Notes: generated from the sequence alone by a model not told the origin. A stretch of 64,000 nucleotides of DNA from an uncultured Candidatus Saccharibacteria bacterium (GCA_964523355.1 CAZFZV010000001.1:2213-66212), one strand, 5' to 3'. Shown: positions 30,768 through 61,112, counted from the stretch's first letter. Made by a program: numbers and translations.

Positions 30768-31004
30768 TGTTAAAATTGGTATGTGGAGTGATTGGCTTTT
30801 GTCCGTAGCGGGAACGTGAATATTAACGACGGCAGGGTTAACTACGTCGGCGAGTGGGGCTGGGATTGGTCGCGTACCGCCCAATCATCTACCAACGCTT
30901 ACAACCTACAGTTCGGCGTATCCGCCATCAACCCGTCAAACAACAACAACCGTCGGAACGGTTTCCCCCTCCGCTGAGTATTTGCCGGTTTGGTGCCGAT
31001 CTTT
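30768..31004 (+). ncRNA. DGR-template-like cassette 1 (leader largely missing)
   Basis: TGTTAAAAT promoter, GTGG at 30783, template 30792-30974 (LAFVRSG...GFPLR, 11 AAC codons), 3' motif CCGGTTTGGTGCCGATCTTT at 30985-31004. Confidence 0.75.
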
Positions 31005-31042
31005 CATAGAAAATACTCCACAAAAGTGGAGTATTTTCTATG
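31005..31042. terminator. Probable bidirectional terminator between cassette 1 and tRNA-Lys
   Basis: Perfect 17-bp stem CATAGAAAATACTCCAC/GTGGAGTATTTTCTATG. Confidence 0.8.
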
Positions 31043-31117
31043 GTGAGTCGGGAGGGGCTCGAACCCTCGACACCCTGCTTAAGAGGCAGGTGCTCTAACC
31101 AGCTGAGCTACCGACCC
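31041..31117 (-). tRNA. tRNA-Lys(CTT)
   Basis: Cloverleaf, anticodon loop CT-CTT-AA, encoded CCA. Confidence 0.95.
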
Positions 31118-31190
31118 AGATACGTTTGTATTATATCACGTTAGAGGCGAAAATGAAAGCCTGATTTGGGTTTTATGCTAAAATAGTAGA

Positions 31191-32291
31191 ATGAAGATAC
31201 GCGAGAATGTACCAATTTCTGAGCTAACGACGATGCGACTGGGCGGCGCGACGCGGTATCTCGTGGAAGTTGAGCAGGAAGATGATATTCGAGCGGCCTA
31301 TGAGTTTGCGCGAGAGCGTGGTTTGCCGGTCTGGATTATGGGAGGGGGCGCGAATACGATTGGACGCGATGAGGGTTTCGCGGGCGTAATAATCCTGAAC
31401 CGATTGAAAGGAATTTTCGTACAGCAGGGCGATAAACTAGTCGCAGCGCAGGATTCGAATGACGCAGAGCTAGGGGATGAATTAACAATCGTGGCGATGG
31501 GGGGAGAAATTTGGGATGATTTGGTGAAATTTGCTGCCGAAAAGGGCTATACGGGGATCGAAGCAATGAGCATGATACCGGGGACGGTAGGGGCGGCGCC
31601 AGTACAGAATATCGGGGCTTATGGTCAGGAATTGTCGCAAGTCATAGAGTGGGTCCGAGCGTATGATACGAAGAGCGGCGAAATCGTGACTTTGACAAAA
31701 CCGGAGATGAAGATGGGCTACCGGACGACGCGGTTTAATACGGGAGAGGACGTCGGGAGATTCTTTATTATTTCAGTGACACTTAAGTTGCGGCGAGGAG
31801 AGCTAGAGCCGCCTTTCTATAATTCCCTACAGCGCTATATTGATGAACACGGCGTGAAGGATTTTTCGCCGGTAAGTATTCGGGAAATGGTTTGCGAGAT
31901 TCGCGACCAGAAATTACCTGACCCCGAGAAAGTGGCTAACGCCGGAAGCTTTTTCAAGAATGTACGTGTGACGCCGGAAGAGGTCGAGAGCGTGAAGGCA
32001 AAAGGAATGCCAGTATGGGTAAATGCGGACGGGAGCGGAAAGCTGAATTCTGGCTGGTTAATCGAAGCTTGTGGGCTCAAAGGTAAAGAGGCGTATGGAT
32101 TCCGCGTGAGTGATAAAGCGGCGCTGGTGCTAATCAATGAGAGCGCGAAATCGTATGCGGATTTGGCGAAAGCAAGGCAAGAGGTAATCGATGCGGTGCG
32201 GGAGAAATTTGGATTCGTATTAGAACAGGAGCCGGTAGAAATATATCATGAGACGAATAATATTCAAAGCGATGATGCGGGAGATGAATAA
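31191..32291 (+). CDS. murB: UDP-N-acetylmuramate dehydrogenase
   Basis: TTMRLGG, GGGAN, IPGTVGAAPVQNIGAYG, NAGSFFKN, EQEP. Confidence 0.95.
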   Translation: MKIRENVPISELTTMRLGGATRYLVEVEQEDDIRAAYEFARERGLPVWIMGGGANTIGRDEGFAGVIILNRLKGIFVQQGDKLVAAQDSNDAELGDELTIVAMGGEIWDDLVKFAAEKGYTGIEAMSMIPGTVGAAPVQNIGAYGQELSQVIEWVRAYDTKSGEIVTLTKPEMKMGYRTTRFNTGEDVGRFFIISVTLKLRRGELEPPFYNSLQRYIDEHGVKDFSPVSIREMVCEIRDQKLPDPEKVANAGSFFKNVRVTPEEVESVKAKGMPVWVNADGSGKLNSGWLIEACGLKGKEAYGFRVSDKAALVLINESAKSYADLAKARQEVIDAVREKFGFVLEQEPVEIYHETNNIQSDDAGDE

Positions 32292-33154
32292 TGAAAGAGT
32301 TGAATGGTCGAGAGCTAGCAGGCTATATGAAAGAGAACCAGGCGCATACGGTGCGCAGCTTAAAGGCGCGTGGCGTGCGGCCAAAGCTAATCATTATCCG
32401 CGATAATGACAATCCGGTGATTGCGAAATATGTACATTTGAAGCGACTGTACGGCGAAGATATAGGGGTAGAAGTCGAGGATTGGCTACGAGATGACGTC
32501 ACTAGAGCGATCCAGGAAGCGAATCAAGATACGAGCGTACATGGCATAATTGTGCAGCTACCACTCAAAGATAAGAGTATGACGGACGCCGTGGTAAGAG
32601 AAATTGTACCAGAAAAAGATGTGGATGGCCTCGCGAGCAATATTCACCAGATGAATAATGCTTCAGAAGAATATTCATCTGATGATATAATAAGTCAGCA
32701 AGTGCAGTTTGAATCGGCGACGGCGACGGCAATAAATTGGCTCTTGGCGGGGTATGATATCGATTTGGTCGGTAGACGAATTGCGATAGTAGGATATGGT
32801 AGGCTAGTGGGGGCGCCACTGGAGCGGATGTGGCGCAATTCGGGATATGACGTGAGCGTGTTTCGAAGCAAGGATAGTTTAGAAACATTGCCGGAGTATG
32901 ATGTGATTGTGAGCGCGACGGGTGTGCCGCATTTGATTAAAGATGAGTTAGTCGGAAGCGGAGCAGTCGTAGTCGATGCTGGGACGGCGAGTGAGGGTGG
33001 CGTATTAGTCGGCGATGTAGACGATGCAGTGCACGAGCGGAAAGATTTGAAAGCGATTACACCGAAAATAGGAGGAGTGGGGCCGTTGACGGTGACGGCG
33101 CTGTTTGAGCATGTTTTGATGGCAGCGGAGAGAGCTAGTCGCGTTTCAGCATAA
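32291..33154 (+). CDS. folD: Methylenetetrahydrofolate dehydrogenase/cyclohydrolase
   Basis: HGIIVQLPL, EKDVDG, VGAP, ITPKIGGVGPLT. Confidence 0.92.
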   Translation: MKELNGRELAGYMKENQAHTVRSLKARGVRPKLIIIRDNDNPVIAKYVHLKRLYGEDIGVEVEDWLRDDVTRAIQEANQDTSVHGIIVQLPLKDKSMTDAVVREIVPEKDVDGLASNIHQMNNASEEYSSDDIISQQVQFESATATAINWLLAGYDIDLVGRRIAIVGYGRLVGAPLERMWRNSGYDVSVFRSKDSLETLPEYDVIVSATGVPHLIKDELVGSGAVVVDAGTASEGGVLVGDVDDAVHERKDLKAITPKIGGVGPLTVTALFEHVLMAAERASRVSA

Positions 33155-34913
33155 CGGTAAAGGCTTCGGAGGGGATGTCGATTTTGCCGAAGCGTTTCAT
33201 GCGTGCTTTACCCTTTTTCTGTTTTTCGAGCAGCTTAGCTTTGCGGTCGCGATCGCCGGTATGAATCTTCACGGTAACATCTTTGCGATAAGCGCCGATG
33301 GTTTCGCGGGCGATGATTTTAGCACCGATAGCAGCTTGGAGGGCAACCTCGAAATTCTGACGCGGGATGACTTCCTTGAGCTTTTTCGTAATTTCGCGAC
33401 CGAGCGCATCGGCTTCGCTACGGTGGCACATAATACTGAGAGCGTCGATACGGTTCCCTGCCACCAGAAAATCGAGACGGACGAGGTCTTCGGCACGATA
33501 ATCCGACAGCTCGTAGTTAAAACTAGCGTACCCAGACGTAATGCTCTTCAGCTGGTCATAAAAATCCGTCAGGAGATTCGCCATCGGTGCCTCAAAGTCA
33601 ATCACAGCGCGATCTTCAATATAGCTAAGATTGGTCTGGTGACCGCGTTTTTCGTTAATCAGGCCGAGGACGCCGCCAATCATATTCTGCGGCAAGATAA
33701 TTTCGCCTTTCACCCAGGGCTCGCGAATCTCGAGAATCGTAGATTGGTCAGGGAGATCGGAAGCGGAGCGAATGTTGAGATTTTCGCCGTCAGTCGTCGT
33801 AACTTCGTAATTGGTCGACGGATTGGTCACGACAAGGTCAAGGTTGAATTCACGTTCGAGTCGCTCGCGAATAATATCCATATGGAGCAGCCCGAGGAAT
33901 CCAATACGCAGACCAAAGCCAAGGATGGGGGAGTTTTCCGGCTCAAAATGGAGGGCGGAATCGGAGAGGGCAAGCTTTTCGACGGCATCTTTCAAATCTT
34001 GGTACTGGTCGTTTGAGACAGGAAAAAATCCGGCGTAGACGAAAGGTAGGACATCTTTGTAACCTGGGAGCGGAGTAGTAGCAGGATGCTGCGCAAGCGT
34101 CACAGTGTCGCCGACTTTGGCTTCGCGGGTAGTCTTGAGGTTGGTCACAATATAGCCAATACTACCTTCGTCGAGACTGGCGGCGGGGGTCATTTTGGGA
34201 GTCAAGGCGCCAACTTCGAGCGCAAGACCGTTAGTCTCGGCGGCCATCATGCGGATTTCGGCGTTTTTCGGAATGACACCCTCAAAAACGCGAACATACA
34301 GAATGACGCCACGATAGTCGTCAAAGTAGGAATCGAAAATCAGGGCTCTAGTATCTCGTGAGTTGGTGGTCAACTCACGAGGGGCTGGAGCTTTTTCGAT
34401 GATCGTATTGAGAATATCGGTGACGCCTTGGCCAGTTTTGCCGGAGGCGAGGATGATATCCTCGGCCGGACAGCCTAGAAGATTGATAATCTGGGCGCTG
34501 ACTTTCTCGACGTCGGCGGCGGGGAGGTCGACCTTGTTAATCACGGGGATAATATACAAATCTTGCTCGAGTGCCAGATAGACATTGGCGAGGGTTTGCG
34601 CTTGGATACCTTGCGTAGCATCAACAACTAAGACCGCCGCTTCGACGGCTTGGAGCGAGCGGGAAACTTCATAAGAGAAATCGACGTGCCCTGGCGTATC
34701 GATCAGGTTCAAAATATAACCTTGCCAACGCATCTGGACGGGGGCGAGCTTAATCGTAATTCCCTTTTCGCGCTCCAGCTCCATAGAGTCAAGCAACTGT
34801 GATTTCATTTCACGCTGCGAAACTGTACCAGTGAGCTCCATCATGCGGTCGGCGATAGTCGATTTGCCGTGGTCGATATGAGCGATGATACAGAAATTGC
34901 GAATTTTATCCAT
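33135..34913 (-). CDS. lepA: Elongation factor 4
   Basis: IRNFCIIAHIDHGKST, DTPGHVDF, GFLGLLH, LLEKQKKGKARMK. Confidence 0.97.
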   Translation of the reverse strand: MDKIRNFCIIAHIDHGKSTIADRMMELTGTVSQREMKSQLLDSMELEREKGITIKLAPVQMRWQGYILNLIDTPGHVDFSYEVSRSLQAVEAAVLVVDATQGIQAQTLANVYLALEQDLYIIPVINKVDLPAADVEKVSAQIINLLGCPAEDIILASGKTGQGVTDILNTIIEKAPAPRELTTNSRDTRALIFDSYFDDYRGVILYVRVFEGVIPKNAEIRMMAAETNGLALEVGALTPKMTPAASLDEGSIGYIVTNLKTTREAKVGDTVTLAQHPATTPLPGYKDVLPFVYAGFFPVSNDQYQDLKDAVEKLALSDSALHFEPENSPILGFGLRIGFLGLLHMDIIRERLEREFNLDLVVTNPSTNYEVTTTDGENLNIRSASDLPDQSTILEIREPWVKGEIILPQNMIGGVLGLINEKRGHQTNLSYIEDRAVIDFEAPMANLLTDFYDQLKSITSGYASFNYELSDYRAEDLVRLDFLVAGNRIDALSIMCHRSEADALGREITKKLKEVIPRQNFEVALQAAIGAKIIARETIGAYRKDVTVKIHTGDRDRKAKLLEKQKKGKARMKRFGKIDIPSEAFTVMLKRD

Positions 34914-34935
34914 AATAGTGCTAAAATTATATCAT

Positions 34936-35826
34936 ATGAAGATAATTTTGGCAATTTCGGGGGGCGTGGATTCGATGGTGATGCTCGACATGGCGCGGAA
35001 AATGGAGGGATTGACCAAAGAAGACTTAATCGTTGCGCATTTTGACCATGGGATGCGGGAGAATTCGGGCGAAGATGCGGAATTTGTGCGGAGGAAAGCG
35101 GGAGAGTATGGCCTAGAATGCCGGATCCAGCGCGGCAGACTTAAGCCCGGCGCGGCGGAGGCGGAGGCGCGGAAAGCGCGGTATGCATTCTTGGAGACGA
35201 TCCGGCGCGAAATTTATGAGCAGAGCGAGGAGGAGAGCGAGATTTGGACTGCGCATCATCTGGACGACTTAGTAGAATCCGTAGCGATTAATTTCATCCG
35301 CGGGACGGGCTGGCGGGGACTGGCCGTACTAGATAGTAGGGGAGTAAGGCGGCCATTTTTGGATCGTAAAATCGTTGATCAGCCGATGGATAAAGCGGCA
35401 ATTTTTAGATATGCCGGGGCGCACGGGATTGAGTTTCGGGAGGATCAGAGTAACTCATGGGATGAATATTTGCGCAATCGGCTACGTCACCAGATGAATA
35501 ATAACGGTAGGCTGAGTAGCGATAAAAAGCTGCGGATTTATGAGCTTTGGCGACAACAGCGGCAACTAAAGACGGAGATAAATACGTTGGTGGATATAGT
35601 AATACCGTCGGAGGATAAAGAGTGGCGACGGAAGTGGTTTGAGGGGCTAGAAAAAGATATAGCGCTAGAACTATTGAGGCGAGGGGCTGGCCGCAAGGGC
35701 ATAGAAGCGACACGGCCACAGCTGGAGGATTTCAGGCAGGCGATTATCAGCTATGGTTCGGGGAAATATTTTAATTTACCCGGGGACAAACTGGTGAAGC
35801 TAAAAAAAGAGACTTTTGAAATCTAA
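34936..35826 (+). CDS. tilS: tRNA(Ile)-lysidine synthetase
   Basis: AISGGVDS PP-loop, AHFDHG, RKARY, AHHLDD, EDQSN, RNRLR. Confidence 0.92.
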   Translation: MKIILAISGGVDSMVMLDMARKMEGLTKEDLIVAHFDHGMRENSGEDAEFVRRKAGEYGLECRIQRGRLKPGAAEAEARKARYAFLETIRREIYEQSEEESEIWTAHHLDDLVESVAINFIRGTGWRGLAVLDSRGVRRPFLDRKIVDQPMDKAAIFRYAGAHGIEFREDQSNSWDEYLRNRLRHQMNNNGRLSSDKKLRIYELWRQQRQLKTEINTLVDIVIPSEDKEWRRKWFEGLEKDIALELLRRGAGRKGIEATRPQLEDFRQAIISYGSGKYFNLPGDKLVKLKKETFEI

Positions 35827-35867
35827 TTTTGTGCTATAATAGCGGCAGATTAAAGTGGAGTTTGTAT

Positions 35868-36701
35868 ATGATTACGAAAGCAATTATTCCAGTCGCAGGT
35901 TGGGGGACACGGAGATTACCGATTACGAAGATTATTGAGAAGTCGATGCTGCCGGTCGGAAATCGGCCGTTGGTAGATTACTCGGTCCAAGAACTGATTA
36001 AGGCGGGCGTGAAAGATATTTACATGGTAATTTCTAATGTCGAGCCGTGCCAAGTAAAAGCCTTTTATCAGAAAAATACAGCGCTGGATCAGTACTTGAT
36101 TGACAGAGGTAAAGAAGATAGATTGAAGCTGGCGCATACTTTGCCGGACGATGTAAAAATTCACTACGTACAGCAGGACCCGGCCGGAAAATATGGAACG
36201 GCGGTGCCGATTGCGATGGTGGTAGAAGAATACAAGATTGATGAGCCAGTGCTGGTCTTCATGGGCGATGATTTTATTTGGAATCCGGACGGAGAGTCGG
36301 CTAGTGATTCCCTGCTACAGGCGCTACAAGAGGAGGGTGAGTCGGCAATTCTGGGCGTAGAAGTGGACAAAAATCAGGTAGATAAATATGGTGTGTTGTC
36401 GGTCGAGGATGGGAAGCTGACTGCGATTGTAGAGAAGCCAGAAGTCGAAGCGGCGCCGTCGAATTTGATTAACGTCAGCAAGTATGTCATGTCGCCAGAG
36501 CTATTAAAAGAAATTGTGGATTATGTACAAGAGCACGATTTTGGGCCGAAAGATCAGGAGTATCTTGTCACCGATCCGATTGAGTCGTACTTGGAAAAAG
36601 GCGGCGTAATGCGAGTTGCGCCGACGACTGGCGAATACCTTGATGGGGGCAGCGTCGAGGGCTGGCTACACGCGAATAACGTAGTCTGTGGCGGAGAATA
36701 A
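35868..36701 (+). CDS. galU: UTP-glucose-1-phosphate uridylyltransferase family protein
   Basis: KAIIPVAGWGTRRLPITK, KSMLPV, VEKP. Confidence 0.8.
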   Translation: MITKAIIPVAGWGTRRLPITKIIEKSMLPVGNRPLVDYSVQELIKAGVKDIYMVISNVEPCQVKAFYQKNTALDQYLIDRGKEDRLKLAHTLPDDVKIHYVQQDPAGKYGTAVPIAMVVEEYKIDEPVLVFMGDDFIWNPDGESASDSLLQALQEEGESAILGVEVDKNQVDKYGVLSVEDGKLTAIVEKPEVEAAPSNLINVSKYVMSPELLKEIVDYVQEHDFGPKDQEYLVTDPIESYLEKGGVMRVAPTTGEYLDGGSVEGWLHANNVVCGGE

Positions 36702-36801
36702 TTCCTTAAAGTTTATATCACTACACGAATAATTGTAAAAGTCAATATGCGTGTGGTGATATATTTTGTGCTATAATCGTAATATGAGGAAACACTTAGA
36801 T

Positions 36802-38391
36802 ATGACTTATCAGGAAAAAATTGGACACGTAGTGGAGCGGCTACGGACCGAAAAAGGTTGGACGCAAATGCAGCTCGCGGAGGCGATTGGGAGTAGCCAG
36901 TCGGCGGTGCATCGGATTGAGAAAGGCGGCCAGAATATTTCGCTGGAGCTAATCCGGAAGTTGTCTCAAGCGCTGGGCGGGCAGATTCTGTCGATTAATG
37001 ACAGCGTTTCGCAGAGTTACTGTATTCATGGCGGGAAAGAATTACACGGCGAGGCGACTATCAATACGAGCAAAAATGCGGCTGTGGCGTTGCTCTGTGC
37101 GAGTTTGCTGAATAGCGGGGTGACGACGCTGAGGCATGTGGCGCGGATTGAAGAAGTGTTTCGGATTATCGAAGTGCTGGAGTCGCTAGGAGTTAAGTGC
37201 CGTTGGATAAACTCCAATCGCGATTTAGAGATTACGCCGCCACGTAAACTGGACCTCGAGAAGATTAATGTCGAAGCGGCGCGGCGGACGCGGTCAGTGC
37301 TGATGTTCATGGGGCCGCTGTTACATAAGTTTAAGAAGTTTCGGCTGCCTTATGCGGGAGGATGCACGCTCGGGACACGCACGATTGAACCGCATCTGAG
37401 AGCCTTGTCGACGTTTGGACTAAAAGTCGATGCGACGAACTGCAGTGGGTTCTATGAGGCGACGGTGGCGCCCGCGAAACCGACAATGAAGCCAAAAGAT
37501 GAAGAGATGCCGCGCAATATTGACCAGGTGGGGCCGAAGTTCCCGCCGAAGCGGATTGTGCTGATTGAGCGCGGAGATACGGTGACGGAAAATGCTTTGA
37601 TGGCGGCGGCGTTATACCCGGGCGAGACGACGATCGTGGGCGCATCATCAAATTATATGGTCCAAGATTTGTGCTTTTTCTTGGAAAAGCTAGGGGTGAA
37701 AGTGCGCGGGGTGGGGTCGACGACTTTACGAGTCTCTGGTAAGGCGACGATTGATATGGATGTGGAGTATTCGCCAGCTGAAGATCCGATTGAGGCAATG
37801 TCGTTTATAGCGGTGGCGCTAGTGACGCAGTCGAATTTGACAATCCGACGGGCGCCGATTGAATTTCTCGAGATTGAACTGGAGATTTTGCGCAGTATGG
37901 GCGCGAGGATAGAGCGATCGCCAGAGTATTACAGTACAAATGGACGAACGCGGCTGGTGGATTTGAAGATTAAGAAGTCTAAGTTGGTGGCGCCGACAGA
38001 TAAGATTGCACCGATGCCATTCCCGGGGCTGAATATTGATAATCTGCCGTTCTTCGGCGTGATTGCGGCAACCGCGGAGGGGCGAACGCTGATTCATGAC
38101 TGGGTGTTTGAGAATCGAGCAGTATATATTACTTACCTTGAGAGCCTGAATGCGAAAGTCGAGCTCCTAGACGCGCACCGGGTGTATATTGAGGGGCCGA
38201 CGAATTGGCGAGCAGCTGAGCTAGTAGCGCCGCCCGCATTGCGACCGGCGGTCGTAGTATTGATAGCCATGCTGGCAGCGCCAGGGACTTCGATCTTGCG
38301 GAATATTTATTCAATTAACCGCGGATACCAAGATTTCGCAGCCCGACTGAATAATCTGGGAGCTGATATTCAGCCGCTGAGCGGAATTTAG
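36802..38391 (+). CDS. murA: XRE-family HTH fused to UDP-N-acetylglucosamine 1-carboxyvinyltransferase
   Basis: N-terminal WTQMQLAEAIGSSQSAVHRIEKG; SKNAA, catalytic GGC, PFPG, LRPA, RGY. Confidence 0.9.
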   Translation: MTYQEKIGHVVERLRTEKGWTQMQLAEAIGSSQSAVHRIEKGGQNISLELIRKLSQALGGQILSINDSVSQSYCIHGGKELHGEATINTSKNAAVALLCASLLNSGVTTLRHVARIEEVFRIIEVLESLGVKCRWINSNRDLEITPPRKLDLEKINVEAARRTRSVLMFMGPLLHKFKKFRLPYAGGCTLGTRTIEPHLRALSTFGLKVDATNCSGFYEATVAPAKPTMKPKDEEMPRNIDQVGPKFPPKRIVLIERGDTVTENALMAAALYPGETTIVGASSNYMVQDLCFFLEKLGVKVRGVGSTTLRVSGKATIDMDVEYSPAEDPIEAMSFIAVALVTQSNLTIRRAPIEFLEIELEILRSMGARIERSPEYYSTNGRTRLVDLKIKKSKLVAPTDKIAPMPFPGLNIDNLPFFGVIAATAEGRTLIHDWVFENRAVYITYLESLNAKVELLDAHRVYIEGPTNWRAAELVAPPALRPAVVVLIAMLAAPGTSILRNIYSINRGYQDFAARLNNLGADIQPLSGI

Positions 38392-38523
38392 GGAAATTGC
38401 GGGGCGAGCGGACTTTTTGTAAAAAACATCAAGCTTGTGTTTGTAAGTTGGGCGAAATTTGATATATAGTGACAGCATACGCGTATTTATAATGCTATAA
38501 TAAGAGTAGTAAAGGAAGGTAAT

Positions 38524-39609: not shown

Positions 39610-39615
39610 GCAGGG

Positions 39616-40392: not shown

Positions 40393-40446
40393 GCTATGGT
40401 TGTTCTTAGGTTGCGTTGCTCTATGACGGCTCTTATGGCTGCTAGA

Positions 40447-41037: not shown

Positions 41038-41090
41038 AATTAATTATAGTATAGCACAGTTTACGATAAATGCATTAATCCTTACTCGGA

Positions 41091-42749: not shown

Positions 42750-42820
42750 GTTTTTATTATAGCACAACCAAAACCCACCCTATTGAATTAGGGTGGATTT
42801 GCGACCATAAACACGTAAGG

Positions 42821-43918: not shown

Positions 43919-43920
43919 TA

Positions 43921-48066: not shown

Positions 48067-48106
48067 ATGTATTAACTCCTTTTATCTTCCGTATTATTAT
48101 AGCACA

Positions 48107-49348: not shown

Positions 49349-49352
49349 TCTC

Positions 49353-51954: not shown

Positions 51955-52032
51955 AGTTCACTCCTCACTACATACACCCACGACTCATTCATATTTTCAT
52001 TTTAGCATAAGTCGGATGTTTGGTTAAGCATT

Positions 52033-52470: not shown

Positions 52471-52522
52471 GGTTATATATTATTATAGCACTGAACCAAT
52501 AAAATCACAGTATGCCCGGTTA

Positions 52523-52953
52523 TGCTAAAATAGGAACGTGGATGTAGCAGTCCATGGGAACTGCGGGCGGTTTTTGAGGTCAGGCTCCAATCTCCAGAAG
52601 TTCTCGTTTCTCAAAGATCGTGAGGTTGCGCTTCTACGATAAAGGATATTATTGGAAGTCTAGATTTCGAGCTAAGTCACGGTTTAGTCTCGCACAAAGT
52701 AGCCTCTTTGCTTGGGTTGTAGCTCATAGTTGGTTTTCTGGCTTTTGTCCGTAGCGATGCTATCCGCCTTAACGAGGGCACTGTCGGATACGCTGGCAAC
52801 AACGGGTACGCCTGGTCGCGTACGGCTAAATCGTCCACCAACGCCTACAACTTGGACATGAATCCTACAAATGTCAACCCGTCGAACGCTAACAACCGCT
52901 GGTACGGTTTCCCCCTCCGCTGAGGAGTTACCGGTTCGGTGCCGATCTTTGAG
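52523..52953 (+). ncRNA. DGR-template-like cassette 2
   Basis: TGCTAAAAT, GTGG at 52538, 200-nt structured leader, template 52738-52920 (LAFVRSDAIRLNEG...RWYGFPLR), 3' motif 52931-52953. Confidence 0.8.
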
Positions 52954-52966
52954 CAAGGCGTTATCA

Positions 52967-53400
52967 TGATAGAATGAGAGAGTGGGCATTACCCATGGGA
53001 ACTATAATAAGCACTTGAGGTCATGCTCCGGCTGATTGTCGTTCTCTCGTTCAAGATCGTGAAGCCATTCTCTAAGCTTATTAGGAAAGTAATCTCTAGA
53101 GGATAGAAAGTTAACTCTAGCTAAGGTTAGAGCTGTATGTAGTTGGCTTCTTTTTCCGTATTGACGATGGATACTATGGATTTATGCATTTGGCTTTTGT
53201 CCGTAGCGGGTATGTTAATCTCCCTGGCGGCAATATCAACAACGTCGGCCACAACGGCTACGACTGGTCGCGTACGGCGAACTCAGCTACCAACGCCTAC
53301 CGTCTGAACTTCAACCCTACGGGCATGAATATGAATGCTGAAAACCGCTACTGGGGTTTCTCCCTCCGCTGGAGAACTGCCGGTTCGGTGCCGATCTTGA
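52967..53400 (+). ncRNA. DGR-template-like cassette 3
   Basis: TGATAGAAT, GTGG at 52982, 208-nt leader, template 53190-53369 (LAFVRSGYVN...RYWGFSLR), 3' motif 53380-53400. Confidence 0.8.
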
Positions 53401-53442
53401 TGATTATATAAAAAATAAGAGTCGATAGGCTCTGCTTGCGTA

Positions 53443-53458
53443 TTGGTGGGGGCGGTTG
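53443..53458 (-). repeat. Duplicate of the tRNA(CAT) 3' end (att-like)
   Basis: TTGGTGGGGGCGGTTG is identical at 53443-53458 and 53501-53516. Confidence 0.8.
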
Positions 53459-53501
53459 ATCAGCGTAAAAAATGAGAACCAAATGGTTCTTCTTTTAGCG
53501 T

Positions 53502-53577
53502 TGGTGGGGGCGGTTGGGCTCGAACCAACGACCAAGCGGTTATGAGCCGCCTGCTCTAACCCCTGAGCTACGCCCCC
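53502..53577 (-). tRNA. tRNA with CAT anticodon, most likely tRNA-Ile2
   Basis: Cloverleaf, loop CT-CAT-AA, paired 1-72, overall resemblance to Ile2-type tRNAs; tilS is present in the window. Confidence 0.85.
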
Positions 53578-53635
53578 AAGGATATATATATATTATATAT
53601 TTATTTCTAAGAGACAACAAGGTCTTAAAATTGCA

Positions 53636-53730
53636 GGCGACAGCCCTTGAACTGGCGAGGATAGCGAATAGAAAGAATGCTAGCATTCTTTCTTGAGCGA
53701 CGCAGCCAGCAAATGGGCGACAGCCCTTGA
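53636..53730. repeat. 15-bp direct repeat flanking a 24-bp palindrome
   Basis: GGCGACAGCCCTTGA at 53636 and 53716; AGAAAGAATGCTAGCATTCTTTCT between them. Confidence 0.7.
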
Positions 53731-53772
53731 CAATCCCCTAAAGTTTTGCGAGAATAGGACTATTGTTGGTTG

Positions 53773-53862
53773 TTACCGCCGTCGTTTCCGTACGACGGTA
53801 ACGTTAATTTTGAACAAGGTGAATCTAAACGCAAAGCGCCAGATTCGGAACTTGATCTCCAT
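53773..53862 (-). CDS. 29-aa cationic/aromatic small peptide
   Basis: MEIKFRIWRFAFRFTLFKINVTVVRKRRR preceded by AGGAGGAAGGAGG. Confidence 0.5.
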   Translation of the reverse strand: MEIKFRIWRFAFRFTLFKINVTVVRKRRR

Positions 53863-54155
53863 CAGAGCCTCCTTCCTCCTTTCCCCATTTTGTTAACTGA
53901 TGCTAATTGCCAGGACTGATCGCCCTGCATTCAACTTAGCACAAAGTGAGTAAAAGTTGCAAACATAGGCGTCTTTATAGTTGCAACAATCTGCTTAAGA
54001 TTGCTTAATATGCTATTTTGTAGTAGAATTAAATAACTATTGATTGATAGAAGAATCAAGGACCTTAAAATGATAAAGACAGTTCAGTTATTGTTCTGAG
54101 GTTCTCTAATCTTCTACATCAATCTACAACTATAAAATAAAAAGGAGTGGAAAAA

Positions 54156-55280
54156 ATGAAGAAAAGATTTTTTGTAGCATTGATGGTAGTAGCATGTTTG
54201 ACGCTTGGAGGGTGCGGAGATAGCAATACTTCGGTTGATAATATGGACGCGGAAGTACACGAGAGCGAAGATGTGTTGGAGGCGGAAGATATTACAACGG
54301 AAGATTCTGAGGTTGACATGTCAGAAGAAGAAACGGATGGGGGTGATGAGGAAAGTAATGCTGAGGTAAAAGGGATTGTGGCGATGGTATCACGCGCAAC
54401 GATACATTCAAATACTATTCAAATCATTAGTATTGACCCGGACACTGGCATTCAGGAAATTATTTCCGAATTTCTTATAAAAAGTAATAGTGACGAGGCT
54501 TACCAACGGGCGGATAACCGGGTCGTAACGCGTAACTGGTTTTCTAATGATTATACCAAGATGGCTATCAGCAAGCGTTTTTTAAATGCAAGTCAAAGTT
54601 ATCTAAATGAGGATCATGCTGGGTGGATTGATACTAACGGAGACTTTTTCGATATGACCGAAGCGAGCGGACTGAGACCGGAGGACACCTTTTCTAATAC
54701 GGACGTGCTGAGACACAAAACACTGGGGTTTTTCGATGATGACTTTGTGTTTTTAGATACCGCAACTGAGAAAGTCTACTACATGCCGTTTGATAATGTC
54801 TCCGAAATGGGAGCTGCTGAGTTAAGCGAAGAAAACGACTATATATACATGTATCTGCTTAAGCACCCAGTAAACGTACGGCCAACGTGTCAAATTGATG
54901 AACATACCTATATTGTAGACCTTGGGATCGATCAGACATCCAGACCTAGTCCTCTCAGTGTTATTTACGATTTTGATACCGACGAGGAGAGATCATATAT
55001 TCCAGAGAGTAGTCGCTGGAATTGGAGTGGAGTCATGAGTCCGGACGGAGATATGGTAGCCTTTTTCTCGTCGTTGAAAGATGGTATGGGGAAGGTAGAA
55101 CTATACAAAGTGCCATCGTCTGGGGGTGAACCAACGAAGATTACGTTAAAAGCCAATGACGACGTGATTGTGGATTTGACTGCATTACCCGCTCCGTCAT
55201 ACGAGCATCCATCTGGTGGAGTGGATGATTTTCTTAAGCTTCATGATGCTCAATATTGTCGTTTGTTGGAGTGGAGATAA
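54156..55280 (+). CDS. Lipoprotein with acidic linker and TolB/PD40-like C-terminal repeats
   Basis: Lipobox LGGC, SPDGDMVAF, LYKVPSSGGEP; AAGGAG RBS. Confidence 0.75.
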   Translation: MKKRFFVALMVVACLTLGGCGDSNTSVDNMDAEVHESEDVLEAEDITTEDSEVDMSEEETDGGDEESNAEVKGIVAMVSRATIHSNTIQIISIDPDTGIQEIISEFLIKSNSDEAYQRADNRVVTRNWFSNDYTKMAISKRFLNASQSYLNEDHAGWIDTNGDFFDMTEASGLRPEDTFSNTDVLRHKTLGFFDDDFVFLDTATEKVYYMPFDNVSEMGAAELSEENDYIYMYLLKHPVNVRPTCQIDEHTYIVDLGIDQTSRPSPLSVIYDFDTDEERSYIPESSRWNWSGVMSPDGDMVAFFSSLKDGMGKVELYKVPSSGGEPTKITLKANDDVIVDLTALPAPSYEHPSGGVDDFLKLHDAQYCRLLEWR

Positions 55281-55300
55281 TTAAGAAAGGTGGGATGAAA

Positions 55301-55804
55301 ATGACAATACCTAATATTACACAGCGTCGGAAGGCGAAGGTATCCAGTGCGTCAGAACAATCGATAAAGTTACCGTTTCAGAAGCGGATTGCGATTCGTA
55401 ACCCAAACCGACATTATGTCGGAAGCAGTTCTAAGGGTGATTGTCATATTTGCGGGAGATGTATGGGCAACGATAATTGTGTTCCGTGGTATGAAAGCAT
55501 GTGTGAGAGGTGCCGCCAACGATATATAGATGATCTGGCCAATGGGTGGACAACAACTATTTCGGAAGAAATTGACCCAAAGTACCAAGTTGTACTTTGG
55601 CGATTTCAGCAATGCATACTGTTTGACCTAAAAGATGAGAAAATCTCCGAAGCAGAAGCACGTGAAGAATTAAAGGAAGTGGTTGGCATTGCACGAATAG
55701 AAATTGACAAGATAAAACGCCAAGAAGTGGAGCGCACTGCCCGGTCTAATGAATGGGAATCTGAGTCGCAGCAAATAAAAAGTCTCTCTCACCGCCTTTT
55801 GTAG
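55301..55804 (+). CDS. Hypothetical protein with Cys cluster (possible Zn finger)
   Basis: CHICGRC...C...CERC; AAAGGTGG RBS; start could also be 55295. Confidence 0.55.
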   Translation: MTIPNITQRRKAKVSSASEQSIKLPFQKRIAIRNPNRHYVGSSSKGDCHICGRCMGNDNCVPWYESMCERCRQRYIDDLANGWTTTISEEIDPKYQVVLWRFQQCILFDLKDEKISEAEAREELKEVVGIARIEIDKIKRQEVERTARSNEWESESQQIKSLSHRLL

Positions 55805-55887
55805 GCAAGTATCTTCTTCAGCTGTCTTTATCTTCAAATCCGAATAGAGTCGAAGCACAGCTGCTTCGCCTATTCAAAGAATGCTTA

Positions 55888-55915
55888 TGCCCGGTTCTCT
55901 ATGGAGGACCGGGCA
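55888..55915. terminator. Hairpin between convergent genes
   Basis: TGCCCGGTTC/GGACCGGGCA. Confidence 0.65.
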
Positions 55916-55923
55916 AAACTTTT

Positions 55924-58900
55924 CTATGGGAGAATAATGCCGCCACCGTTATTGTTGTTTCCACCTCCATTGTTGTGCTGGCGCATCTGACGCTCAAAGT
56001 CGCGAATCTGTGAACCAGTTAGGTCGCCATTTTGACCGTTACGAGGTATAACAATACCACTGTCATTTTCTGTGAAACCTCCAGGTACTGGCGCTGAATT
56101 GCCTGAATTATGTTGTACGTGAAGTGAGTATGGAATTTCTGTACGGCCGTCAAGCGCGCGGATATTATTTAGCTTCATCGCTGATTCTTGCGTTAATGTA
56201 ACTGCCCCATTATTGGCAGCATTCAATGTTGCTTCGGCAATATTAGCCAATTGTGCGCGTTCATCAGCGCCAATAGACCCAGAGCTAATACTAGCAGAGA
56301 TGCGATTTAGCTCAGCCTGACTCGCATTCGCCATAGAACGTATGCTGGTGTTATCAACCGTGCTAACACTGGAGTTGCTACCTGTCCCTCCCGTAGGTGC
56401 ATCGTACTCCATATTGGCAATTGTATTGAGGCCGCGGCCAACATCACCTTTCACAGCAATATTTTCGTTATTCATCGCTTCACGAGCTTGAGCGATCAAA
56501 TTATTGCGCGCTTCACCTTGAATATTACCGTTTCGGAGGCCTTCAATAGCCATGCGACGGTATCCATCATCAGTATTAGCGAGTTGTTCTGCGCCAATAT
56601 CTCGCGCTTTCTCTTGTAGGTAGTTCTTGTTTGCAAGAAATGTGTTTCCGTCATTATCATGTGTCGATATGATATCGGATGCATTATAGGCGTAGCTTCC
56701 ACTGGCGAGTTTATTAAGGTTCTTAAATGTGTTTGGATTCTTAGCCTTATAATCACCTCCTGCCGCATTCCGTACAGCGCTAGCTGCCCATTGGATGCCT
56801 TTGTTGGAGGTTTCGCCAGCGAGCGCGGAAGCACGTACCCCACCGTTAAGTACACTGTCAACATACTGCCGACCTGCGTCGCTTGTATTAAGGTTATGCA
56901 TTGCTGATGTAAATCTTGCCCTTGCGTCAACATTTGTGCTGTCTGCCCTAAGCTCATTCAACGCCTCCTCGAGCTTCGCAGCAGCGGAGCTTTCCTCTGC
57001 GAATGTCCCATCGTTTTCCCAAGCATCCGTATAATCCTTAGCTAGCTCCATCACATGCCTTTGAGTAAATGCGTCTGTACGGTCGCGATTTGCCAGATCT
57101 TGCGCTAAGACGGCATTCTGTGCTCGATTACTGCGGCGATTATGCGAACTTTTAGCCATGCTTGCCAACCGTCCGTTACCTTGACGCATTCGAGCATTAA
57201 TGCCCTCCATCGGATGCATAACATTGTTTAGCCAACGCCGCCGTCTGCCTAATTCGCGATTCTGCTCACGATTAATATATCTTTGCGCATTATGACCGGC
57301 TAGTCGAGCTTGGCGATCTCTGTAGCCCTCTGACCGACGAATTCCGCCCGTGACGCTGTGGCCCAAGCGACTTCCAAATGTAGAAAGTTTGGTTCCCAGA
57401 TTCCCCATGGCCTGGAATGAACTTTTTAAGATTGTGGGCACGAAGAAAATCGGGATAGCTTGAATTAGAACAGAAACGAACACATAAAATATGCCCGAAT
57501 CACCATTAGCATTCGCTAGTAATAACTTTGATGCAAACTGTCCTCCACCCATTAAAGCTCCACAAATTGGATACACAATTAGCATTCCAAAGAACAGCTT
57601 CCACCAACGGTTAAAGACATTCTTCGTGTTCGGGAGCGCATAACAGATTATTGCCAATGGCGATAACGCAACTAAGATAATGATCGCTGCTTGGCGTACG
57701 CCAAGCAATAAGAAAAACGCCAAAATACTAATAATCCCTACGATAAGCAGAAGTACAAACGGCATAATCCAGAATTCAACCGTATTCGCAAGTGCAATCC
57801 CACTCCCGACGACAAGTGCTGCTGAAACTACCGTGGCGATAATTGCGCCCAATCCACCGTTGCCATATTCGCTACCGATTGATACTCCTTCGCTAATGCC
57901 AACAAATAGTTCTTTAATATCGTGCCCGATGATATTTGATAAGTCGACGGCAATTTGACATAGGAAAAAGGATAAATTAACAAGTACCGCTACTAAAATC
58001 AAGCTCGGTAGCATCTTTTTCACACCATAATTACTAACACCAAACCCTGTAATCTGCGAGAGGATAATGACTAGAAGAGCTATTGCAAAAGCAATATTAG
58101 CCAAATTACGGAATGTCTCCCAAGCTTGGTGTGTGCCACTAGTGTCGTTGACATATTCGACGTCGGTCTGGAGATAGCTCTGCTCAATAAAATCGTAAAA
58201 CCAATCGGCCGCTTTACCAAGTGCTTGTACTACTGGGCAAACAATCCAACCAAGTGCACCAGAAGCCTTAGAGCAGGGGCTAGCCTCTTCTTGTGTACCG
58301 CCGCCATCATTATTCGCGTCATCCGTAATATCACCAACGATATCGTCAGTTGTGGTGTCATTACCGCTCTCGTCTTTGTCTTTTTCGGTCTTATCAAGCG
58401 CTTTTTTGACAGCTGGAGCGGTATCGTTAATACGCTCAACGGCGCCATCGCAAGTGTGTTTCCCGGATTTCTTGCTCACCCAGCTACTGTCCCAATCGTT
58501 CTTAACGATATCTTGGTTAGAGTAATATTTCTTCTCCATTTTGCCGGTGCTAGGATTCGGAACCTTAACTTCAAAGTAGTTGTTTTTATTCATCAAATCC
58601 GGATCACCGCTATAAGGACTTGATTTGCTACAAGCGGTCGTAAAATCATTGAAGTACAAGAAATAATTAATTAAGTCGTCTGTGAAAGTTCCCCGATCTC
58701 CCCATGAAACCAGATAGCTATTGCTTTTCTTTTTGTTATTGTAGAGCTTTTTCACATGATCCATCGCTCCATCCGTATTCAGCCAGAATGTAATACCATC
58801 TTGTCCGATCGCATCGCTACATTTAGCAACTTTGTCGCCCCTAATACCACCATTGCTAAAATAAGGCACCAACAGACCGGGTTTGTCGCCATCGCAAACC

Positions 58901-59298
58901 AGCTCTTTCTCGGAAATACCTAGTGTAGACTTAAATAGATTCACTAAGTTTTCGCTATTATCATCGCAATATATCGTCCCATTATTAACCTTGCCCTGTA
59001 TTTGGTTTTCCAGCCAGGCTCCAGTCGGTATTTCGATATGTTCTCCCCAACCTCCAAGACTATTAAAGAAATTCTTGCTAGGGTTACCGCCAGAATATTG
59101 TATAGAGGCATCTTCTTCAACTTTCTGCTTGACGCACTTACTGAACACATTCGCCACTAACTGAATTTTTCCGGCTTCTTTCATCTGGCTCAAAGCTTCT
59201 GAGGTCTTGATCGCCATTACTTGCGAACCAATTACTGTGCCGAGCAGCGTAGAAATGACCGCTGCCCAGATTACAAATTTTTTCCAGCCGTTTTTCAT
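55924..59298 (-). CDS. Large VirB6/TrbL-like membrane protein
   Basis: Signal/TM helix, Cys-containing ectodomain, LGWIVCP, AWETFRNLAN, multi-TM core, long low-complexity C-terminal tail. Confidence 0.7.
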   Translation of the reverse strand: MKNGWKKFVIWAAVISTLLGTVIGSQVMAIKTSEALSQMKEAGKIQLVANVFSKCVKQKVEEDASIQYSGGNPSKNFFNSLGGWGEHIEIPTGAWLENQIQGKVNNGTIYCDDNSENLVNLFKSTLGISEKELVCDGDKPGLLVPYFSNGGIRGDKVAKCSDAIGQDGITFWLNTDGAMDHVKKLYNNKKKSNSYLVSWGDRGTFTDDLINYFLYFNDFTTACSKSSPYSGDPDLMNKNNYFEVKVPNPSTGKMEKKYYSNQDIVKNDWDSSWVSKKSGKHTCDGAVERINDTAPAVKKALDKTEKDKDESGNDTTTDDIVGDITDDANNDGGGTQEEASPCSKASGALGWIVCPVVQALGKAADWFYDFIEQSYLQTDVEYVNDTSGTHQAWETFRNLANIAFAIALLVIILSQITGFGVSNYGVKKMLPSLILVAVLVNLSFFLCQIAVDLSNIIGHDIKELFVGISEGVSIGSEYGNGGLGAIIATVVSAALVVGSGIALANTVEFWIMPFVLLLIVGIISILAFFLLLGVRQAAIIILVALSPLAIICYALPNTKNVFNRWWKLFFGMLIVYPICGALMGGGQFASKLLLANANGDSGIFYVFVSVLIQAIPIFFVPTILKSSFQAMGNLGTKLSTFGSRLGHSVTGGIRRSEGYRDRQARLAGHNAQRYINREQNRELGRRRRWLNNVMHPMEGINARMRQGNGRLASMAKSSHNRRSNRAQNAVLAQDLANRDRTDAFTQRHVMELAKDYTDAWENDGTFAEESSAAAKLEEALNELRADSTNVDARARFTSAMHNLNTSDAGRQYVDSVLNGGVRASALAGETSNKGIQWAASAVRNAAGGDYKAKNPNTFKNLNKLASGSYAYNASDIISTHDNDGNTFLANKNYLQEKARDIGAEQLANTDDGYRRMAIEGLRNGNIQGEARNNLIAQAREAMNNENIAVKGDVGRGLNTIANMEYDAPTGGTGSNSSVSTVDNTSIRSMANASQAELNRISASISSGSIGADERAQLANIAEATLNAANNGAVTLTQESAMKLNNIRALDGRTEIPYSLHVQHNSGNSAPVPGGFTENDSGIVIPRNGQNGDLTGSQIRDFERQMRQHNNGGGNNNNGGGIILP

Positions 59299-60287
59299 TA
59301 CTCCTCCAATTTCTCGATTACCCGCTGCATCGCGTCAACTACGGCATTCTCCTCACCATAAGTAATCTCGTCATTCTCATCGTACGCAAAGAAAATTGCC
59401 TGCGGCACGGAAAAACTTTGACTCATCGATTCTAGAGTATCCTTGTAGTCTGCGACAATCTCCGTACAATCCGCAGCAATACTATTGCCATCTAGCGCAC
59501 AGTTATTCGCATCCATTGCGATCTGCAAATCTTTCTTCTCTTGGACAAACTCATCGAACCGCTCCGCTACGGTCGCTATAGTATAGTTCTCACTTGTCAG
59601 ATAATCTTTGAGAGGATCGGTGTTCTCGGTTTTGTAAACAGTATACAGTATATTGTATAAGTCCACGGATTGTCTAAAGGCTCCGGCCTGCTTCGCTAGG
59701 GTGTCCTGTATTTTTTTCACATCGTCGCGCACCTCTGTATCAAGCTTGTCAGCATTGAACTTCGTAAGCTTATCTCGAAATTGAACGAACTGCTCAATAT
59801 TTTGATTAAGCATATCTCGTGTCTCGGGATTCATAATGTCATTGGTGGTTTTTTCGCGAAAATAGACGTCCTGGAAGAAAGACTCAATTTGACGTGTGGA
59901 GTTAAGATTCTGCTGGAATAGGGCTAAGATATCTTGATTATTGTTTTTGAACAAAAACGGCAGGGTTATTAATAGGACAAATAGACCCACTGCTCCAACA
60001 ATTAAGGCTATGATTAACGGTCTTCTATTGCTACGGGGTCTATTATTGACTACCACATCCCCCTCCCCACTGCCTACTGTCTGTATTGGGTGTAGGGGGT
60101 CTGTCGGCAAGGGAGCGTTCAGCGGCGTCGGAGGAGTGAGGTTGGCGGAGGAAATGATTTTATTGTTGGCGGTCGAATCTGGGGAGACTAGAGAATTTGT
60201 AGGGTGGGTGGGTGGCTGAACTGGAGTATCAAACGCGTCAGCGTTTCGCGCTCCGGCCGTGCCCAAAGAATCCTTACCTTCATCCAT
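59298..60287 (-). CDS. Single-pass membrane protein coupled to the VirB6-like gene
   Basis: Pro-rich N-terminus, one TM helix, helical ectodomain; TAATG overlap at 59298. Confidence 0.7.
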   Translation of the reverse strand: MDEGKDSLGTAGARNADAFDTPVQPPTHPTNSLVSPDSTANNKIISSANLTPPTPLNAPLPTDPLHPIQTVGSGEGDVVVNNRPRSNRRPLIIALIVGAVGLFVLLITLPFLFKNNNQDILALFQQNLNSTRQIESFFQDVYFREKTTNDIMNPETRDMLNQNIEQFVQFRDKLTKFNADKLDTEVRDDVKKIQDTLAKQAGAFRQSVDLYNILYTVYKTENTDPLKDYLTSENYTIATVAERFDEFVQEKKDLQIAMDANNCALDGNSIAADCTEIVADYKDTLESMSQSFSVPQAIFFAYDENDEITYGEENAVVDAMQRVIEKLEE

Positions 60288-60371
60288 ATTTATTATGTTA
60301 GCATAATCGGCATGTGATGACAAGTTGGGATTTTGTGAATGACGTGAGCGGAAAATGTTGTCGAGTTGATG

Positions 60372-60446
60372 CTAGAGTCTGCCACTGCATCCGCCGAGCA
60401 TGGGACAAGCCACTACCAATAACGCTACTATCTTTCTTCTCCGCAT
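60372..60446 (-). pseudogene. Truncated lipoprotein remnant (signal peptide only)
   Basis: MRRRKIVALLVVACPMLGGCSGRL-stop with GGAGGTGG RBS; closely resembles the N-terminus of the 54156 lipoprotein. Confidence 0.55.
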
Positions 60447-60538
60447 ATTACCACCTCCATTCTCTGCGGCATTGGTCTACAAGTTGCGTGAATCTTCTGG
60501 TAGCACGTAATGCTCCAGATTGAGTAATTTTTCCTCAT
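60428..60538 (-). CDS. 36-aa small ORF of unknown function
   Basis: MRKNYSIWSITCYQKIHATCRPMPQRMEVVICGEER after AAGGAGG. Confidence 0.35.
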   Translation of the reverse strand: MRKNYSIWSITCYQKIHATCRPMPQRMEVVICGEER

Positions 60539-60681
60539 TGCTTCTTATCCTCCTTCTTGTCAATGTACTTATTCCCAGTGGGTAGTCCTCCGATTTTACT
60601 ATGATTCCCTATTTTATGCAATTATAAGCGGTTTCAAGAGTATTTCATCCCTCTAATGGTACGAGCGTGAGTTATCATACA

Positions 60682-61112
60682 TGCTAGAATGAGACTGTGG
60701 ATAAAAATATCCATGGGGTCTGAAGCGGTTCACTGAGTTTTTACTCCAACTAGCGAATGCCCTCAATAATTGAAGATCGTGAAGTTACTCTCTAATCCTA
60801 GACAGGAAAGGGTCGAGAAAAGCTGCTTGGGCCTAGCTATGGCTAGTCACCACTTGAAGTAACTTCTTTAGTCTGAGCTTGCATCGGATAACGTTTTGGC
60901 TTTTGTCCGTAGCGGGGTTATCTATCCCAACAATGGTACGGCTGGCAACGTCGGCAACAACGGCAACTGGTGGGCGCGTACTGCTAAATCCGCTACCAAC
61001 GCCTATGATTTGGGCATGAATCCCTCCAATGTCAACTCAGAGTCAAATAATAACAACCGTTATCATGGTTTCTCCCTCCGCTGGAGGTTGCCGGTTGCGG
61101 TGCCGATCTTTG
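60682..61112 (+). ncRNA. DGR-template-like cassette 4
   Basis: TGCTAGAAT, GTGG at 60697, 199-nt leader, template 60896-61081 (LAFVRSGVIY...RYHGFSLR), 3' motif 61091-61112. Confidence 0.8.

Follow-up and report, generated by a model that had tools for sequence, protein, structure and literature searches.

The 64,000-nt stretch analyzed here (referred to as the window) comes from an uncultured Candidatus Saccharibacteria bacterium (GCA_964523355.1, CAZFZV010000001.1:2213-66212) and carries four short repeats, T1 to T4, that are likely to be template repeats (TRs) of a diversity-generating retroelement (DGR). With a G+C content of 46.8%, the window represents a chromosome of the Saccharibacteria (TM7) type. 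Among its genes are those for type IV pilins, MurB, LepA, RecA and RecX, agmatine deiminase and ornithine carbamoyltransferase (OTC), and all four repeats are intergenic. Its nearest relatives in the genome collection are Saccharibacteria metagenome-assembled genomes (MAGs) from mouse and rat gut. The window is present in part in rodent gut metagenomes, and 98% of its sampled words are present in four runs from one 2021 study (X1-X4). In the DGR of Bordetella phage BPP-1, a reverse transcriptase (RT) copies a template RNA with adenine-specific errors, and the resulting cDNA replaces a variable region (VR) at the 3' end of a gene.

The four copies lie on the + strand and measure 182-188 nt each: T1 at 30792-30976 (22.7% A), T2 at 52738-52922 (22.2% A), T3 at 53190-53371 (22.0% A) and T4 at 60896-61083 (23.9% A). 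The 5' anchor TTGGCTTTTGTCCGTAGCG is exact in T1, T3 and T4 and has one mismatch in T2 (CTGG...), and the 3' anchor GGTTTCYCCCTCCGCTG has four matches in the window. In shuffled versions of the window the mean counts were 0.03 for the 5' anchor and 0.09 for the 3' anchor, and none of 100 shuffles attained the observed count. A match to the 5' anchor at 61657 carries three mismatches and was rejected as a fifth copy. A profile built from T1-T4 found neither a further copy nor a VR anywhere in the 64 kb.

The sequence-only reading of this DNA had described a repertoire with the same ends and different cores, and the measurements bear this out. Both anchors frame reading frames of 61, 61, 60 and 62 codons in T1 to T4, the C-terminal strings it gave (NPSNNNNRRN, NPSNANNRWY, NMNAENRYW and NSESNNNNRYH) are exact in translation, and the internal GCGTAC and ACCAACGC, which it called invariant, are unchanged across all four copies. 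Pairwise, the copies differ at 48-65 nt, with adenine involved in 15-31 of these differences, and by one or two whole-codon indels. Given these differences and indels, no copy is an A-mutated version of another, in agreement with the sequence-only reading. The clustering of differences at AAC codons was also recovered: AAY is found in at least one copy at 18 of the 35 variable codon columns, versus 4 of the 27 invariant ones (Fisher p = 0.003). Each copy holds 11-14 AAY codons (T1 has 11 AAC codons) and 22-24% A. Adenines are concentrated at codon positions 1 and 2, with counts at positions 1/2/3 of 18/19/5 in T1, 19/19/3 in T2, 19/19/2 in T3 and 21/21/3 in T4.

TR-class copies carry a promoter motif, a structured leader and a tail

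The genome collection was scanned with the 3' anchor, taking one genome per species. This returned at least 116 loci, about 75 of the listed ones from Saccharibacteria; the TR and VR counts per genome given below are lower bounds. Among the matches listed, the Saccharibacteria copies form two classes by the sequence 3' of the anchor GGTTTCYCCCTCCGCTG. The TR class, which includes all four window copies, continues with ...GCCGGTTCGGTGCCGATCTT (AGGAG..GGTGCCGATCTT). The VR class continues with CCTCTACCCAGG into the end of an open reading frame (ORF), GFSLRCLYPGSA or GFSLRCLSTVLDI followed by the stop (CLYPGSA-stop or CLSTVLDI-stop). Within the same set, promoter and leader motifs, counted by the leader box, are present in 21 of 22 TR-class copies versus 0 of 71 VR-class copies, and the mean A fraction is 0.213 in the TR class versus 0.181 in the VR class (p = 7e-4).

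An extended -10 promoter of the form TGnTAnAAT stands 200-275 nt upstream of the repeat in 20 of the 21 leader-bearing units. The leader contains a CCATGGG-type hairpin motif, exact in most units, and ends in the leader box AAGATCGTGAAG, after which a variable spacer of 103-178 nt precedes the TR. Promoter, structured leader, TR and tail together make up a unit of ~430 nt in T2, T3 and T4, with every element on the + strand. In T2, the promoter TGCTAAAAT (52523-52531) has the conserved position just described. It is followed by the covariation-supported helices P1-P4 of the 5' structured domain (52538-52625) and by the 5' strand of helix P5, CAAAGATCG (52612-52620), which overlaps the box AAGATCGTGAGG (52614-52625) at the end of the leader. 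The T2 tail (52923-52951) includes GGTGCCGATCTT at 52938-52949 and the 3' strand of P5, CGATCTTTG, at 52943-52951. T3 has the promoter motif TGATAGAAT at 52967-52975, a 5' structured domain at 52982-53064 that ends in AAGATCGTGAAG (53053-53064), and a tail at 53372-53399 with GGTGCCGATCTT at 53387-53398; a tRNA-Met gene on the - strand (53502-53577) comes next. Similarly, T4 has the motif TGCTAGAAT at 60682-60690, a 5' structured domain at 60697-60784 ending in AAGATCGTGAAG (60773-60784), and a tail at 61084-61111 with GGTGCCGATCTT at 61099-61110, followed by a terminator-like hairpin at ~61133-61162.

RNAalifold analysis of 20 distinct units gave four local helices and one long-range helix between leader and tail, xAAAGATCG / CGATCTTTx. 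Over these units the structure comprises 25 pairs, with 95.4% of cells paired and compensatory changes at 9 of the 25 pairs. None of 500 shuffles attained the observed values, and slid partners were 38-56% paired. The leader-tail helix shows covariation at its outer pairs. A comparison of the leader with Rfam gave no matching family, whether judged by gathering threshold or by E value.

A side observation concerns T3. In two RNA-labelled runs of a related strain (X25 and X26), one contig runs from T2 through T3 without window positions 53088-53207 (120 nt), which comprise the end of the T3 spacer and the T3 5' anchor. The missing stretch could reflect either a deletion in that strain, which would disable T3, or RNA processing.

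T1 is the sole TR-class copy of the 22 without a leader among the matches listed. An extended -10-like element, TGTTAAAAT (30768-30776, +), stands 16 nt before the TR with no 5' leader domain between them, and a gene on the - strand starts ~45 nt upstream of T1. The TR-class tail is retained (30977-31004, +, with GGTGCCGATCTT at 30992-31003), followed by a hairpin at ~31008-31040 and a tRNA-Lys gene on the - strand (31041-31117). The syntenic orthologue of T1 in MGBC126680 (L008:4765) has a full leader and 82% identity to T1; when L008:2297-4949 is compared with window 30700-31040, L008 has ~1.5 kb of extra DNA. T1 also reads GAG TGG GGC TGG GAT at sites that are AAC in other TRs. Judged by its sequence, T1 looks disabled, and its non-AAC codons could have arisen by recombination among repeats, as in the L117-L120 loci described below.

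TR/VR pairs and reverse transcriptases in related genomes

A candidate RT is encoded in related genomes. In the MAG SRP287540_co1_127, an RT lies 1.1 kb from a VR (L009:4089-3888). This protein matches RVT_1 (E = 9e-10), carries the motif IGNLTSQ, and has as its best solved-structure match 8ub7_A (328 aa, E = 4e-22), which we take to be the BPP-1 RT. In Saccharibacteria this RT family, marked by an IGxxxSQ motif, has more than 7,000 database relatives; the relatives' RTs gave no match to the DGR-specific NCBIfam model. On a contig other than that of the L009 RT and VR, the TR L057:2258 aligns with the L009 VR over 200 nt, and all 11 mismatches fall at TR adenines. With the ends extended, 13 of 13 mismatches are at adenines, and homology ends 7 nt past CGCTG. 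Since the L057 TR and the L009 RT and VR are on different contigs, the RT that uses TR-class units need not be nearby.

A TR directly after an RT was seen only in L117-L120, and the window TRs do not sit in the canonical cassette with the TR beside the RT. The anchor GGTTTCYCCCTCCGCTG is common to TR and VR and is followed by divergence, which makes it a candidate G+C-rich 3' element of the initiation of mutagenic homing (IMH) type. The small ORFs by the L117 RT (112 and 147 aa) and the 340-aa ORF of L009 belong to no NCBIfam family, and the 340-aa ORF to no Pfam family either. No Avd homologue was identified among the ORFs by the RT (NCBIfam; Pfam for the 340-aa ORF).

The RT-adjacent unit of L117-L120 is a separate observation. 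At L117:11187-11800 and 12690-12997, this unit holds an A-poor stretch (10% A) that matches, in inverted orientation, the VR end of the 606-aa gene next to it. The identity is 100% over ~310 nt, including ~95 nt of 3' flank and the GTGCCGATCTTT tail, and recurs in four independent assemblies. It looks like a template overwritten by a target, or the reverse.

Variable regions of the window's own templates

Each template was compared with Logan contigs from the runs in which the window's genome is present. For T2, a 294-nt contig at genome depth in runs X2-X4 is T2 with 19 changes and no gaps; among the 16 of these 19 changes that are listed, 12 are at TR adenines. Run X1 and a minor contig of X3 have the same substitutions at non-adenine sites (C>T at 52779, T>C at 52827) but lack the adenine-site changes. 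This pattern indicates that the T2-type VR differs at adenine sites both between and within samples.

T4-type VRs were found in related strains (L127/L128 and L129). They are gapless against T4 over 188 nt, versus 53-67 mismatches plus gaps against T1-T3. The L127/L128 and L129 VRs have 8 non-adenine differences from T4 in common, so the T4 orthologue of these strains must differ from the window T4. Compared with each other, they differ at 13 sites, 12 of them at T4 adenines (p = 1e-7).

The sole VR candidate for T3 is a 171-nt contig, present at twice genome depth in all four own runs (X1-X4). It is T3-like from 53209 to ~53293, with 9 changes, most of the listed ones at adenines, and T2/T1-like after the internal ACCAACGCC. 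Instead of a chimera, it may represent a VR whose template is a fifth TR, located beyond the window. At genome depth, the own runs also contain TR tails that match none of the four window repeats. These unassigned tails imply at least one further TR outside the window, and a fifth TR is probably present in this genome.

Target proteins

The VR beside the L009 RT lies in a 117-aa ORF whose ATG falls within the conserved GWMLPT motif. The better-kept targets are 117-140 aa long and have a conserved segment upstream of the VR, CPSGTGGNWVLPLSG..SGSFYNLL or GWMLPTAG..SGSFYYML. No signal peptide was recognisable by eye in the targets, and a comparison with PDB sequences gave no match. A differently tailed protein, P0141, scored E = 2e-4 with Fib_succ_major (PF09603), short of the cut-off, and the label FISUMP for the targets denotes motif resemblance only (CP.G.W.LP ... 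W.S.T...AY.L ... GFxLRC).

Among ENA and Logan contigs, four cases (P0121, P0122, P0125 and P0126) are ORFs of 2-3 tandem VR units, of the form LAFVRSG...GFPLR(C/H), joined by the linker ..TIVQLP. Repeated or slipped insertion at shared anchors would fit these tandem units.

The repeats as probable templates of a dispersed DGR

Taken together, the window and its relatives have DGR features: TR/VR mismatches at A sites, a non-coding TR with a VR at an ORF 3' end, and A at codon positions 1 and 2. The name templates, which the sequence-only reading had given to the four repeats, is upheld by the TR-specific tail and leader, by the placement of adenines at codon positions 1 and 2, and by cognate VRs with A-specific differences. 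We consider it likely that T1-T4 are TRs, not VRs, of a DGR, and that this DGR has free-standing TR RNA genes, several distinct types of them per genome, remote from the RT. The window's own genome would be expected to encode an RT, given the VR variation and the relatives; every window TR is at least 30 kb from any RT.

Several observations weigh against this reading. No RT was found in the 64 kb by Pfam scans of ~40 ORFs and a six-frame scan for the YxDD motif. Host RNA-seq gave zero reads, and in four RNA-labelled metagenome runs the contig depth over the units equals that of their neighbours, low and flat, with RNA and DNA indistinguishable. In run X1 there is no T1 look-alike of at least 83% elsewhere, and in X1 and X3 T4 has no full-length VR at least 85% alike. 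The T2-type VR carries at least four non-adenine differences and so was not very recently rewritten. On the target side, most VR-class copies (L003-L115) occur in open frames that span just 68-120 aa, and many of these frames start only a few codons upstream of the 5' anchor. The targets have no Pfam or NCBIfam family (four Saccharibacteria-type targets gave no Pfam match even when E values up to 5 were allowed), and an AlphaFold model of a target from a 12-sequence alignment was uninformative (pLDDT 33). Finally, given L117-L120, it appears that not every unit of the class is a working template.

Coexisting template types and exchange of VRs between loci

Multiple templates per genome are not peculiar to the window but characterise the lineage. 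At least three TR units are present in each of CARYFM and CASXXK, and at least two in each of CAPFSK, CANBEI, L048 and L064. T3 is 84% identical to the TR L034:2775, and both have 60 codons. A T1-type TR (L008) and this T3-type TR (L034) are both found in MGBC126680, which is ~76% identical to the window over the syntenic stretch. By these comparisons, the TR types are old and have been kept as separate lineages across species.

Some TR units occur in assemblies with other taxonomic labels. A 46-kb contig (L064, NZ_CALPDG010000030.1) in the assembly of the isolate Mediterraneibacter agrestimuris DSM 111629 holds two TR units and has 81% identity to window 59132-60113. TR units are found as well in L048 and L075, binned as Lachnospiraceae and Clostridia. 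These cases could be contamination, mis-binning, or a Saccharibacteria epibiont carried with the culture.

A strict pairing of one template with one locus was looked for and not observed. T4-type VRs occupy two loci with unrelated flanks (L127/L128 and L129), and VRs of mixed types occur at one locus, where a target gene, a TPR gene and ychF are neighbours (target-TPR-YchF). At this locus the VR measures 188 nt in L127, 194 nt in L130-131 and 185 nt in both L132 and L133, and these VRs are only 62-69% alike. The sequences around them, in contrast, show 91-96% identity over 170 nt on the upstream side and 700 nt on the downstream side. The sequence-only reading had joined two ideas, a repertoire of templates and the retrohoming of any template into any target through the shared anchors. 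The first stands, as several old, coexisting templates; the second is not demonstrated by the data, and two explanations for the movement of VR types have to be compared.

The first explanation, which we rate somewhat higher, is that each template serves only its own VR type, and that the movement of types is RecA-type gene conversion among the many VR cassettes, of the kind known from silent-cassette antigenic variation, layered on the DGR. We regard this as a serious possibility that falls short of probable. Every demonstrable TR-VR relation is gapless and type-specific; for instance, in one genome four VRs all have the resident TR L100 as by far their best match. The best-resolved swap is consistent with the same explanation: L127 and L130 show 4 differences in the first 17 nt past CGCTG and then 70 identical bases, which puts the end of the tract beyond the TR boundary. 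Because the exchanged stretch is in no TR, this swap came from a VR paralogue and not from a template. Furthermore, the dozens of VR-class copies per genome, with their 68-120 aa frames, resemble donor cassettes, and recA and recX are present in the window. In L117-L120, copying between a VR, along with ~95 nt of the flank on its 3' side, and the RT-adjacent TR unit, in one direction or the other, shows that these repeats recombine. Against gene conversion, no single expression locus was identified among the VR loci, and the motif GW.LP...SGSFY..L upstream of the VR is kept in two distant clades, which suggests small real proteins rather than dead cassettes. Occasional cross-template homing would also still be compatible with this explanation.

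Cross-template retrohoming is the second explanation. Here the common anchors would let any TR overwrite any VR, so that a scaffold swap is followed by adenine mutagenesis; we rate it as possible and on the unlikely side. Both anchors are indeed common to the four TRs and the VR class, and both the differing VRs within nearly identical flanks at the target-TPR-YchF locus and the T4-type VR at two unrelated loci fit it. L127 and L132 are identical for 47 nt past the 3' anchor, which fits a TR-limited tract and is compatible with retrohoming or recombination. The T3-like to T2/T1-like switch in the 171-nt contig could be counted in its favour too, but this contig may equally be the VR of a fifth TR, of which an extra tail at genome depth would be the trace. 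The L127/L130 tract, in turn, passes ~17 nt beyond the TR homology into sequence found in no TR, and the alternative VRs at the target-TPR-YchF locus have no cognate TR in the assembled set, the best TR leaving 26-34 non-adenine mismatches or gaps. The upstream scaffolds of the paralogues are, moreover, nearly identical, which would make homologous recombination easy. For the best-resolved VR swap, the tract boundaries favour recombination between paralogues over cross-template retrohoming.

A broader proposal, that one trans-acting RT, by recognising a common RNA handle (5' domain and closing helix) on a library of free-standing templates, can write any TR into any of a dozen or more VR cassettes, with recombination returning diversified VRs to template units and so producing new templates, seems to us doubtful. 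If it were true, diversity would be combinatorial, the product of template choice, adenine mutagenesis and locus, and the library itself would evolve.

That T1-T4 are relics, decayed TRs or pseudo-VRs of an extinct DGR with no present function, is very improbable: the state of T1 (no 5' domain, non-AAC codons, no close look-alike in X1), the lack of an RT in the 64 kb and the non-adenine differences of the T2-type VR would suit such decay, but T2-T4 keep their promoters, helices with compensatory changes, adenine placement and anchors, the TR types are conserved across species, and VRs vary at adenine sites between samples.

Proposed mechanism

Under the preferred reading of T1-T4 as dispersed templates, each TR would be a free-standing transcription unit consisting of a promoter, a 5' domain of ~90 nt, a spacer, a TR of 180-215 nt and a tail of ~30 nt. 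The tail CGATCTTT would pair with AAAGATCG at the end of the 5' domain, placing the spacer and the TR in one large loop. The genome would hold several scattered units of this kind, with three complete ones in the window (T2, T3 and T4) along with T1, which lacks the 5' domain. One trans-acting RT may recognise the common 5' domain and tail and copy the TR with adenine-specific errors, and the cDNA would then replace a VR bounded by both anchors. Such VRs would be found at other sites of the genome, where small ORFs end. A given TR type would produce VRs with a length and a non-adenine sequence peculiar to that type, and more than one locus could be served by a single type. VR cassettes would also be exchanged between loci, in part by ordinary recombination between paralogues.

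Relation to known systems

The usual picture of a DGR, and the usual target of searches, is a single RT with a single TR beside it. The BPP-1 DGR comprises the mtd VR, avd, the TR, a spacer RNA and brt; a G+C-rich stretch of TR and VR marks the 3' boundary, and a structured RNA flanks the TR. In BPP-1 a single TR stands beside the RT, whereas the TRs described here are several, have their own promoter motifs, and are dispersed and remote from the RT. The structured RNA (Sp) of BPP-1 lies 3' of the TR; here the structured domain is 5', and a short 3' tail pairs back to it. BPP-1 also has avd, whose homologue was not identified here.

Silent-cassette gene conversion, as in Neisseria pilE/pilS and Borrelia vlsE, uses promoterless variable cassettes with conserved borders and involves neither an RT nor a template RNA. 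The VR loci resemble these systems in having many short, promoterless cassettes with conserved borders and a variable segment that is replaced within constant flanks. They differ in that silent cassettes show no adenine-specific pattern, and in that no single expression site was found here.

A cellular DGR clade has been described in the Candidate Phyla Radiation (CPR), or Patescibacteria (PMC8144416, PMC11661182). The present system is like it in its phylum-level host group, in being chromosomal and not viral, and in its many paralogous targets. In Stenotrophomonas sp. SKA14, a DGR that has six VRs and two TRs was reported as a single example of a two-TR system (PMC6642488). It is alike in having more than one TR and several target ORFs; here, in contrast, at least four units are spread over at least 30 kb without an RT, and their types are conserved across species. 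In Treponema denticola, one TR serves several targets, some of them remote, and TR variants occur in the species (PMC4891356). Those variants belong to different strains, one per genome in a fixed cassette, whereas the variants described here coexist in one genome.

In the searchable literature, no description was found of free-standing multiple TR units or of a leader-tail RNA, nor of multi-TR DGRs in Saccharibacteria. In the present reading, TRs would be independent RNA genes with a recognisable handle, in multiple versions per genome, away from the RT and conserved across a host-associated group of Saccharibacteria. For such genomes, a detection pipeline that seeks TRs in the vicinity of RTs would be likely to miss some of the templates and some of the targets. 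The 5' domain and its closing helix are a candidate RT-recognition module, on the side of the TR opposite to the BPP-1 spacer RNA. This module is also of interest for programmable mutagenesis tools in which one RT has to serve several templates. The system also offers a setting for asking whether retroelement mutagenesis and cassette recombination act together in diversifying the proteins of an obligate epibiont whose genome measures ~1 Mb.

Other features of the window

The region 6805-18477 encodes a SNF2-type helicase, an Eco57I/MmeI-like methylase of 1019 aa, and a 1357-aa protein with an Eco57I-like methylase and a ResIII helicase domain. These genes are a restriction or defence island with no connection to the TRs.

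Beside T4, two ORFs on the - strand encode proteins of 341 aa (59298-60323) and 1124 aa (55924-59298), neither with a Pfam match. In L064, the TR units have beside them conserved counterparts of the 341-aa ORF and of the 3' end of the 1124-aa ORF, which adjoins it. The 341-aa protein was compared with the ORF upstream of the L009 RT as a possible relative and proved unrelated.

Non-coding DNA at 53600-54000, after the tRNA-Met gene, contains GGCGACAGCCCTTGA twice and has 72% identity to L129:264-540, a segment located between two VR genes of a related strain.

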